From an uncultured Candidatus Saccharibacteria bacterium (GTDB lineage Bacteria > Patescibacteriota > Saccharimonadia > Saccharimonadales > JAUPVS01): a stretch of DNA of 40,207 bases. The stretch spans positions 200,047 to 240,253 of the forward strand of contig CAYPFM010000002.1 in the NCBI GenBank assembly GCA_964410185.1. Reading direction: 5' to 3'. Of the stretch, positions 1,776 through 3,272 are shown one piece after another. Within the stretch, counting starts at the first letter, position 1, and the number at the start of each line of letters is the position of its first letter. A program made the translations under genes and the position numbers. The notes under the pieces are model-generated. The model searched no databases, was not told the origin of the DNA, and saw only the letters and a list, made by a program, of their open reading frames with translations.

Positions 1776-2634
1776 TACCCAACTCCTCAAGCGTCGCATG
1801 GGTTCAATTAAGAACACCAAGCAAATCACCAAGGCCATGGAATTGGTGTCGGCCAGCAAGATGCGCCGCGCCCAAGAAAGCGCCTACAAATCGCGTGACT
1901 TCCGCAATGTGGCTCGCGAAATTCTGACTCGTCTGCGTCAATTGACTGATGTTGAGCAGCACCCACTGTTCAAGCAACGTAAGATTAAGACTCGCTTGCA
2001 CGTGGTGATTGCCAGTGATCGAACGCTAGCCGGTGCTTACAACAGCAACATTATGAAGGCGTTTGCCAGGGCCTTACAAGAAGACCAAGAAATGGGCATT
2101 ATCAGCCAGGCCATCGTCATTGGTCGGCAAGCTGCCCGCTTTGCGGCAAAGTTACAAAATCTTGAAGTCGTGGCCGTTTACGAGCATTTTGCCGAGCACC
2201 CTACCGCCAATGACATTCGTCCGATTCTTAACACTCTTGTCGACAAGTTTGCTGACCGCACCGTTGACGCGGTTGATATCATCTACACTGACTACAAGAC
2301 CAGCTTGCGCCAAGAAGTTGAAGTTCAGCGCCTGCTACCCGCCGCCTTCCAAGATATTGAGATCGAGCCGGACCTGGAAAAGGCGATTTTTGAGCCATCA
2401 GTGCGGGCGGTTTTGGATAATGTCACCCTGCGTCTGATCGAGGCCCAGCTCAGCCAGGCCATTCTGGAAAGCTTTGCCAGCGAACACTCTATGCGGATGC
2501 TGGCCATGAAGAACGCCAGTGACAACGCGACTGAAATTATCGATGACCTGACCCTGGCCTTTAATAGTGCAAGGCAAGCCAGTATTACCCAAGAAATAGC
2601 AGAAATAACCGGTGGGGCGGAGGCAATCGCATGA
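1768..2634 (+). CDS. atpG: F0F1 ATP synthase subunit gamma
   Basis: The N-terminus from ATG 1768 ([36 protein letters not shown]) is a canonical gamma start. GGAGG at 1757-1761 sits 6 nt upstream. The C-terminus [14 protein letters not shown] is typical. Confidence 0.9.
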   Translation: [288 protein letters not shown]

Positions 2635-3272
2635 GTGACGTAATCGGTGAAAGAGTAGCAGTTCTATATACCCAGGACGCAAGTGATCCCAATGTGGCAA
2701 AAGCTGCCAGTAGCTTTATATTCAAGATTAGTCAGGTTGGCCTAGCGGTGCGTGGCTTCCCACAGAACCCGGGTGCATCGACAGAAAGCGTTGAGCAGTA
2801 TGTCGAAGGACTTCCAGCAGATGTCGTCATTTTTGGCGACACAGCAGGCGTTGACACGACAAAGGTGCGAGAAGCTACAGCTGAAGAGGCCCAGGAGCAT
2901 GTTATTGCAGTCGGCCAAGAACAAGACTTTTTAGCCGCACTGATTGCTCGCAGACAAGAGAGATTGGTTGCGACGGAGGTTGGCGAAGAAGAAACGGCTT
3001 CAGTCGCGCTTGACCCAAACTCACCGACATATCACGACGATGTGATGAGGACCGGATTTGCCGTTGTTCAGGATGGCAAAACTCGCCTACCAATGCTCGT
3101 AGCCAGCGAGGTGGCCGAGGCGGTATTTGATCAGGTTAGTGCTGATTACATGCGTCGAGTCCGACAACTTGTGGCCGAGACATCAATTATTGATGAATTA
3201 TTAACAGATGAGCAACGTGCAATCGCAACACAACAAATTCAAGAAATGGAGACAGCATGGCAACAGCAGTAA
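2631..3272 (+). CDS. hypothetical acidic 213-aa protein inserted between atpG and atpD
   Basis: ATGA start/stop overlap with atpG. The 3' end overlaps the atpD start by 16 nt and contains the atpD SD. No TM segment or recognisable motif. Confidence 0.65.

Follow-up and report, generated by a model that had tools for sequence, protein, structure and literature searches.

An orphan gene between atpG and atpD of a Saccharibacteria bacterium is one instance of an order-wide pattern of reading frames at F1 junctions of the atp operon

The gap between atpG and atpD in the F-type ATP synthase (atp) operon of an uncultured Candidatus Saccharibacteria bacterium is filled by an open reading frame (ORF) of 213 codons, here termed ORF213, which we conclude with high confidence is a genuine protein-coding gene. 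The operon lies at the start of a 40,207-nucleotide (nt) stretch of DNA, hereafter the window (assembly GCA_964410185.1, contig CAYPFM010000002.1, positions 200,047 to 240,253). Judged from its sequence, ORF213 is a fast-evolving, taxonomically restricted (orphan) gene, and it is one instance of an order-wide pattern at three junctions between F1 genes, a class that is newly defined here. We believe that ORF213 is probably a dispensable passenger gene that uses the transcription of the operon together with a ribosome relay, a composite reading that we weigh below against its rivals.

ORF213 lies on the + strand (2631..3272), from an ATG at 2631 to a TAA at 3270-3272. Upstream, its start codon overlaps the TGA of atpG (1768..2634, +; F1 gamma; PF00231, E = 6e-83) as an ATGA at 2631-2634, and a Shine-Dalgarno (SD)-like GGAGG (2619..2623, +), set within the final atpG codons (GGAEAIA), stands 7 nt ahead of that start. 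Downstream, its stop falls 16 nt into atpD (3257..4639, +; F1 beta; PF00006, PF02874), the first 16 nt of which, from the ATG at 3257, are shared by the two genes, and the SD of atpD, a GGAG at 3248..3251 (+) that is 5 nt ahead of the atpD ATG, is part of the ORF213 coding sequence. An initial annotation, made from the sequence alone, had described both overlaps and the internal SD, and its view that ORF213 fills the gap exactly and is coupled to both neighbours holds, with an overlap of 4 nt upstream and of 16 nt downstream. It had also called the product acidic and soluble, in agreement with the properties of the 213-amino-acid (aa) protein, which has an isoelectric point (pI) of 4.29, a net charge of -0.094 per residue and no transmembrane (TM)-like segment (maximum 19-aa hydropathy 1.27). 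We also weighed read-through of the atpG TGA and rejected it, as the next in-frame stop follows two codons on and the end of atpG matches the ends of its relatives.

The chance of finding 213 open codons at the local base composition is about 1e-5. The longest ORF in any other frame inside ORF213 is at most 63 aa, and a 100-aa minus-strand ORF (2398-2700) shares only the first 70 nt of ORF213. A codon log-odds model trained on 30 genes of the window, which themselves score 0.47 +/- 0.14, gives ORF213 a value of +0.33 in frame and of -0.14 to -0.88 in the remaining five frames; the frequency of G at codon position 1 is 0.47. The rare-looking codons that had been noted as contrasting with atpD were borne out by codon adaptation, with a G+C content at third codon positions (GC3) of 0.42 against a median of 0.59 for the 30 window genes, a third-position A of 0.32 against 0.18 in window genes, and a codon adaptation index (CAI; reference, the atp genes) of 0.436, where non-atp genes have a median of 0.587 and just one of the 26 lies lower.

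The same DNA recurs in other data. A base-for-base copy is present in an independent public run (contig L082, equal to window 901-3856), the ORF213 DNA is identical in run X1, which comes from a wastewater community, and copies 87-96 % identical occur without indels in other metagenomes from groundwater and freshwater, with runs X2, X5 and X8 among them. In a 275-nt contig of run X8 (window 2869-3143; 94.5 % identical), 15 substitutions have accumulated with no indel or stop, and 8.5 synonymous and 6.5 non-synonymous differences over 273 nt give a ratio of non-synonymous to synonymous change (pN/pS) of 0.24; in the C-terminal part, three synonymous changes leave the amino-acid sequence as it is. 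A contig of run X5, also free of indels and stops, gives a pN/pS of ~0.33, both ratios resting on small counts (15 differences in X8 and 10 in X5). A metatranscriptome of the same study as X1 holds one identical 151-nt unitig at 2669-2819, unstranded and with DNA carry-over possible, and another metatranscriptome holds two identical unitigs in atpD, which together are a weak but positive sign of an operon transcript running through ORF213. Around the ORF213 locus we found no + strand terminator, no promoter signal above that of shuffled sequences, no Rfam family, no terminal or target-site repeats bracketing 2631-3272 and no tandem repeats, and the start regions of ORF213 and atpD are less structured than shuffled controls (z = +1.7).

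Could ORF213 have arisen by chance as an open stretch of non-coding spacer DNA, or as an artefact of assembly? The lack of any database family and a poor single-sequence AlphaFold2 model (predicted local distance difference test, pLDDT, 38) would be expected of such an object. However, given that so long an open frame is improbable, that the coding signal is specific to the ORF213 frame, that the same sequence appears in independent runs, that its metagenome variants have neither indels nor stops, and that the statistics of the class to which ORF213 belongs agree with coding, we regard this explanation as effectively refuted.

The orphan status of ORF213 was established over a protein search scope of 5.8 and 15 billion proteins. 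Scans with Pfam, NCBIfam, PHROGs and PADLOC returned nothing above noise for ORF213, for its two modules described below, for ORF127 (a 127-aa ORF between atpA and atpG) or for P0003 and ORF149, two ORFs of contig L081 discussed below. A PDB sequence search with ORF213 gave only noise at E = 1, and, in keeping with the earlier remark that no motif stands out in the protein, no family of these databases was recognised in it. In a word-indexed search of 5.8 billion proteins both ORF213 and ORF127 found only themselves, ORF127 being an orphan as well. Exhaustive HMMER searching of 1.84 billion cluster representatives recovered a sole true relative of ORF213, the 99-aa P0003, which is 41 % identical to residues 129-213 (E = 4e-7). 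A second hit, P0002 (1740 aa; 25 % identity over four short stretches, E = 3e-7), was judged compositional and not a relative. A profile search with the two-member alignment of the shared region brought no new member, two Joint Genome Institute (JGI) metagenome scans, one with the ORF213 protein and one with that alignment, found no relative, and tblastn of 50,697 phage records found no match to ORF213.

P0003 divides ORF213 into two modules. The C-terminal module (aa 129-213; 3015..3269, +), to which it is similar, is predicted to be helical; a model from the two-sequence alignment has three helices at a pLDDT of 66.8, and Foldseek of this model against the PDB gave only meaningless matches at E > 2. 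P0003 is encoded on L081, a 1.2-kb contig of another Saccharibacterium, at the same junction and in the order atpG, ORF149, ORF99 (P0003), atpD. There the 149-aa ORF (141-590) and the 99-aa ORF (587-886) are joined by ATGA overlaps throughout, and the second runs into atpD by the same 16 nt as ORF213 does (...WQQQ*). Since the homologue of the C-module stands free in L081, either ORF213 is a fusion of two modules or L081 is split. ORF149 is unrelated to the N-terminal module of ORF213 apart from its first four codons (MSDV), and the two loci together look like a mosaic of modules between conserved ends.

The N-terminal module (aa 1-128; 2631..3014, +) has an alpha/beta pattern and no relative in any of the databases or assembled contigs searched. 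Its only trace is a loose end of ~12 codons (30 nt) in run X8, MSERFAVIYAEP..., continuing from the same ATGAGTGA start as the window, which is too short to be more than a hint. The single-sequence AlphaFold2 model of ORF213 is unusable (pLDDT 38.5). A GTPase of the Era/EngA/HydF type was considered on the basis of the sequence DPNVAKAAS... and a DTAG motif at aa 69-72, and the HydF profile TIGR03918 scored E = 0.003-0.005, with 16 bits against a cut-off of 325. The module has no P-loop GxxxxGK[ST] and no Pfam GTPase match, BLASTP against an approximate Era sequence gave nothing, and the fetched atp loci hold no HydF/Era-type GTPase from which a profile could be built. We therefore treat the GTPase as a weak lead and not as a classification.

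How widely is ORF213 kept? A search with atpG returned only metagenome-assembled genomes of Saccharibacteria (Saccharimonadales), the best of them 83 % identical, and 80 fetched Saccharimonadales atp loci were used for comparison. We refer to the junctions between F1 genes as alpha/gamma (A/G, atpA-atpG), gamma/beta (G/D, atpG-atpD) and beta/epsilon (D/C, atpD-atpC). By tblastn, nothing similar to ORF213 or ORF127 was found in the 80 related loci. L001 (atpG 83 %, atpD 92 %) carries unrelated ORFs of 161, 152 and 65 aa at A/G, G/D and D/C, respectively; L002 (atpG 82 %, atpD 90 %) has a 94-aa ORF at A/G, a spacer of ~60 nt at G/D and a 3.8-kb insertion at D/C; and in L003 A/G is empty, G/D holds an 88-aa ORF unrelated to ORF213, and D/C holds a 72-aa ORF. 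One suggestion of the initial annotation, that ORF213 is a lineage-specific accessory factor of the ATP synthase, did not survive this comparison if it is taken to mean a conserved partner: close relatives keep an intact atpG-atpD pair without ORF213, the L002 spacer and the unrelated ORFs of L001 and L003 standing in its place, which is an outcome that the annotation itself had named as refuting. Absent or replaced in its closest relatives, ORF213 cannot be counted among the conserved accessory subunits of the enzyme.

The L002 locus has further features of its own. Its 3.8-kb insertion (~8306-12094) separates atpC from atpD and carries a Crp-family regulator on the operon strand; on the opposite strand it encodes a two-component pair, histidine kinase and response regulator, with homology to window 9707-11379, besides further ORFs. 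Its A/G ORF (5724-6008) is of the same family as the A/G ORFs of L012 and L024, and is marginally similar to atpA in the N-terminal region of the latter (35 % over 52 aa, E = 0.002), which could reflect a partial duplication of atpA or could be noise.

Within the window, the first 5 kb read, all on the + strand, atpA (3' part), ORF127, atpG, ORF213, atpD and atpC. The window begins within atpA (F1 alpha; 1..1389, +; 92 % aa identity to atpA of L001). ORF127 (1392..1775, +), the A/G junction ORF, starts 2 nt past the atpA stop and overlaps the atpG ATG (1768) by 8 nt. It had been seen, with ORF213, as one of two independent unknown ORFs interleaved among the F1 genes, and it is indeed the same type of object as ORF213, with a pI of 4.56, a GC3 of 0.445, a CAI of 0.463 and a coding log-odds of +0.32. 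That the two form a co-evolving pair is not demonstrable, both being orphans; across the 80 loci the occupancy of the junctions is loosely correlated (Fisher p = 0.027, uncorrected for phylogeny). atpC (F1 epsilon; 4640..5068, +; PF02823) directly adjoins atpD, with a gap of 3 nt in a tblastn-based table, and the D/C junction is therefore empty in this genome.

Although no relative of ORF213 was found in them, the 80 loci show that ORF213 is one instance of a pattern that runs through the order. More than 150 nt fill the A/G junction in 35 of 79 loci, G/D in 52 of 77 and D/C in 37 of 71, whereas the Fo/stator junctions are filled in 1 of 54 (atpB-atpE), 6 of 55 (atpE-atpF), 0 of 53 (atpF-atpH) and 0 of 56 (atpH-atpA). 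In most Saccharimonadales, one to three ORFs on the operon strand are found at these F1 junctions. When the longest stretch free of stops is compared between the strands of the 116 gaps that are 200 nt or longer, it spans a median of 97 % of the gap on the operon strand and of 50 % on the opposite one, and the operon strand is the more open in 113 of them; in spacers of 45-150 nt both strands are ~96 % open and openness does not discriminate between them. The ORFs are chained to their neighbours: of ~117 first starts, 70 lie across the upstream stop with an overlap of 4 nt or 1 nt (36 ATGA-type, 34 TAATG-type), 8, 4 or 1 nt are frequently shared with the atp gene downstream, and 12 of 23 internal boundaries are ATGA. 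An SD-like motif is present in the last ~22 nt of 73 of 81 atpG genes and upstream of atpD in all 39 filled G/D junctions examined (39/39). At compact G/D junctions, with gaps of 1-20 nt (L052, L070, L074 and L077), atpD starts at the position where ORF213 starts in the window.

The composition of these ORFs is that of coding sequence. The frequency of G at the first codon position is 0.40 in the reading frame and 0.17 and 0.20 when the frame is shifted (136/141), compared with 0.385 in atp genes and 0.277 in random open stretches of the same composition. Their products are acidic, with a pI below 5.5 in 82 % as against 33 % of background ORFs and a net charge of -0.077 per residue, where shuffled nucleotide sequences and random ORFs both give +0.07. 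Compared with shuffles of the same ORF, 138 of 141 carry more negative charge, and a TM-like segment was seen in just 4 of the 141. The junction ORFs also have a lower GC3 than the atp genes on either side in 130 of 141 cases (median difference -0.10).

In sequence the junction ORFs have little in common. BLASTP leaves 125 of 155 as singletons, a Pfam domain is missing from 138 of 141, and when ORF213 was aligned by hhalign with each of the 140 other junction ORFs, no probability reached 4 %. Homologous junction ORFs, where present, always lie at the same junction and sometimes have one module only in common. Between L013 and L015 the identity is 71 % for the A/G ORF, 89 % for gamma and 99 % for beta, so that the ORF diverges faster, and occupancy is patchy over the atpG tree, the clade of the window included. 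Recognisable captured genes are two PF05635 proteins and one Crp regulator. The PF05635 proteins, encoded by the D/C ORFs of L007 (3963-4334) and L039 (3617-4006), match the '23S rRNA intervening sequence protein' at E = 1e-33 to 3e-35, a family otherwise known from insertions in rRNA genes. No derivation of junction ORFs from atp or flanking genes was found, the L002 A/G ORF being a marginal exception. From these comparisons, the junction ORFs are of mixed origin and mostly unrelated between species. The density of orphans, 0.42 per kb in the F1 region against 0.49 per kb in the flanks, is uninformative, since the flanks lack synteny; the proper control is given by the Fo/stator junctions. 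In the literature searched, we found no description of this phenomenon. Separately, the alpha/gamma spacers of L046, L047 and L060 (60-118 nt) contain 7-nt tandem repeats (CATGTCT x4, TTCTCTG-like x5 and AATTCCC x3), which suggests that slippage may be one route by which junction spacers grow.

The patchy distribution of junction ORFs on the atpG tree raises the question of whether ORF213 was carried in by a selfish mobile insertion that targets conserved genes, in the manner of a homing endonuclease or an intervening sequence, or is what such an insertion left behind. Third positions that are AT-richer than those of host genes, the PF05635 proteins at two D/C junctions and the mosaic of modules between the window and L081 would all fit such an origin. 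However, no nuclease, recombinase, integrase, transposase or PF05635 domain was found in ORF213, there are no terminal or target-site repeats and no phage or plasmid-type matches, and in the loci examined no homologue of a junction ORF occurs outside the junctions, except for the opposite-strand two-component-system genes of the L002 D/C insertion. We consider a mobile insertion very improbable.

One junction ORF occurs in a cultured organism. In Southlakia epibionticum ML1, SEML1_0356 is a 160-aa 'hypothetical protein' between gamma and beta (341945-342427) that overlaps the gamma stop by 4 nt and the beta start by 8 nt (PMC10633639, supplementary tables). Its authors assigned it, on the basis of structure, an N-deoxyribosyltransferase (NDT)/DUF4406-like fold, with no Pfam match, and did not discuss it in the text; by transposon sequencing (Tn-seq) it is non-essential, as are all the ATP synthase genes (PMC10633639). 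Indeed, the Saccharibacteria ATP synthase is dispensable in culture and the direction in which it runs is debated (PMC10633639). SEML1_0356 resembles ORF213 in position, in the anatomy of its overlaps, in being 'hypothetical' and in having no Pfam match, and the two are likened by position and annotation only. It differs in its length of 160 aa and in having been assigned an NDT/DUF4406-like fold. ORF213 matches no DUF4406 or N-deoxyribosyltransferase profile, although a beta-alpha-beta pattern can be seen in it by eye, and its AlphaFold2 model, at a pLDDT of 38, is too poor for folds to be compared.

Are the junction ORFs then partners of the enzyme after all? ORF213 and the others could be fast-evolving, lineage-specific F1 modulators or assembly helpers that act through a generic acidic surface, with the basic C-terminal domain of epsilon or nascent alpha/beta as examples of possible targets. 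The ORFs lie at three F1 junctions and not at Fo/stator junctions, their tight stop/start overlaps imply co-production with the subunits, acidity and solubility are common to unrelated sequences well above composition-based expectation, signs of purifying selection are seen, and homologous junction ORFs always keep the same junction. Against such a role, the partners are 80-92 % conserved and yet the ORFs have no detectable similarity; they are missing or replaced between species with 82-83 % identical gamma; some are unrelated enzyme or regulator folds (PF05635, Crp and, in Southlakia, NDT-like); no known family of ATP synthase accessory proteins is matched; and the low CAI is odd for a stoichiometric partner. 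On balance, we think a modulator, the main rival reading, unlikely, if worth keeping in view. Less likely again is the bolder version, in which F1 junctions are a dedicated arena for hyperdiverse acidic proteins acting on F1 and ORF213 is a lineage-private regulator of the ATP synthase. If that were true, the proteins might for example brake the hydrolysis of ATP, switch the direction of rotation or help in assembly, and would be made in step with alpha, gamma, beta and epsilon, and either tuned to the host or environment of the epibiont or in conflict with phages or hosts.

We instead propose that ORF213 is a passenger of the operon, an account that builds on its directly established anatomy, coding status, orphan status, absence or replacement in relatives and class-level statistics. 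First, having no promoter or terminator of its own, ORF213 would be transcribed within the atp operon. Ribosomes ending atpG would then meet the GGAGG, which lies in conserved C-terminal codons of atpG, and the ATG of the ATGA overlap, and for this reason we infer that ORF213 is translated by termination-reinitiation or by local initiation. The termination-reinitiation mechanism has been reviewed (PMC6728339, PMC12548453). Since its 3' end carries the SD of atpD and the 16-nt overlap with it, ORF213 may also act as a ribosome relay from gamma to beta. The product would be a soluble, acidic protein of two modules, an alpha/beta-looking N-module fused to a helical C-module. Passengers of this kind would gain strong expression from the operon and would be tolerated only as long as they are open, coupled and harmless, with a product that is both acidic and soluble; their sequences, meanwhile, would drift or be replaced. 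The reinitiation, the dispensability and the rationale for a passenger are thus the parts of this account that we infer. Of the two alternatives put forward in the initial annotation, accessory factors or genes that exploit the expression of the operon, it is the latter that fits the data.

A relay could, on the other hand, be all that matters. ORF213 would then be a translated spacer in which only openness counts, to keep ribosomes on the mRNA, avoid polarity and feed atpD, its peptide being a harmless by-product. The filling of gaps on the operon strand and the chaining by overlaps agree with this, as do the lack of sequence conservation across species, the low GC3 and CAI, and an acidic, soluble composition of the sort expected from selection against toxicity. 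In contrast, the pN/pS of ~0.24-0.33, a C-module that is identical in amino acids in a 94.5 % identical relative despite 3 synonymous changes, and the 41 % identity of the C-module at the protein level over a large distance are not what a mere spacer would show. Furthermore, compact operons need no spacer, and atpD has its own SD and an unstructured start, so that there is no obvious need of a relay. We find a translated spacer distinctly improbable.

Several observations also weigh against ORF213 as a passenger. A pure passenger model leaves the restriction to three F1 junctions unexplained, and the uniform acidity of unrelated proteins, likewise unexplained by it, could point to a shared role at F1. 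The pN/pS of ~0.24-0.33 and the 41 % conservation of the C-module, although the counts are small, mean that the protein sequence of ORF213 matters somewhat. Support for its expression is thin, consisting of one unstranded unitig with possible DNA carry-over, and its dispensability leans on absence in relatives and on the Southlakia Tn-seq of a different ORF.

Taken alone, ORF213 is an orphan of a known kind; what is new is its membership of a recurrent, junction-specific, hypervariable class in a core operon of Patescibacteria. The context therefore matters more than the gene: the most conserved energy operon of ultra-small, genome-reduced epibionts is repeatedly interrupted at three junctions by unrelated, translated, acidic genes that turn over faster than their surroundings. 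This amounts to a replicated natural system for the birth or capture of genes inside operons and for the constraints under which they are tolerated, namely openness, coupling and a harmless composition. It also opens to study whether Saccharibacteria tune F1 with private factors, and the class is testable in a culturable strain. For annotation, junction ORFs should be called genes but should not be named ATP synthase subunits by position, and ORF213 should be entered as a hypothetical protein.

Elsewhere in the window, a de novo purine cluster that looks complete by Pfam (purH, large purL, purM, purD, purN, purF, purE, purK, purC and purB) occupies 12400-28165 on both strands. The usual description of Saccharibacteria and other Patescibacteria is that they do not make nucleotides de novo, and by comparison this environmental lineage looks richer in its metabolism. 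Between purF and purE (22622-24116, -) lie an AAA_28 P-loop protein of 189 aa and a 322-aa protein without a Pfam domain, which overlap by 44 nt as called, although the downstream TTG start may be set too far upstream. Unknown ORFs are therefore interleaved in another conserved operon too. At 38544-39569 (-) is a Peptidase A4 of the eqolisin/scytalidoglutamic type, a family best known from fungi; since its log-odds of 0.07 is the lowest in the window and its CAI is low at 0.46, it may have been acquired horizontally.

Free-standing selfish genes between conserved genes are known in the form of phage seg/mob homing endonucleases, phage morons and PF05635 intervening-sequence proteins. Like them, ORF213 sits between highly conserved genes, is patchily distributed as a class and is AT-richer than its neighbours. 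Unlike them, it encodes neither a nuclease nor a PF05635 domain and lacks repeats as well as a promoter and a terminator of its own.

Accessory and regulatory proteins of F-type ATP synthases include AtpI/AtpZ, the epsilon C-terminal domain, the alphaproteobacterial zeta subunit, IF1, cyanobacterial AtpTheta and the Atp11/Atp12 chaperones. The inhibitor IF1 is basic, whereas ORF213 is acidic. With these proteins, for which PMC9317440 is a reference, ORF213 shares the features of a small soluble protein that is encoded in the atp operon and would be co-expressed with F1. It differs from them in having no sequence or profile similarity, in not being kept among close relatives and in lying between F1 genes and not at the ends of the operon.

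Coupled overlapping gene pairs with ATGA or TGATG junctions (PMC6728339, PMC12548453) share with ORF213 the ATGA overlap, the downstream SD within the upstream coding sequence and the overlapped downstream start. The pairs described in those papers consist of functionally related, conserved genes, whereas ORF213 is a hypervariable orphan between conserved partners.

ORF213 also compares closely with bacterial ORFans, or taxonomically restricted genes, which are short, A+T-rich, fast-evolving and without homologues, and for which Daubin and Ochman 2004 is reportedly an example source. A further reference is PMC11293555. Like ORFans, ORF213 has homologues only in a very narrow lineage, is shorter than average, has lower GC3 and codon adaptation, and turns over rapidly. 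In contrast to them, ORF213 lies within a core housekeeping operon and not in an island or near mobile DNA, is found at one of three recurrent junctions to which it is chained by stop/start overlaps, and belongs to a population of ORFs with common physico-chemical properties.

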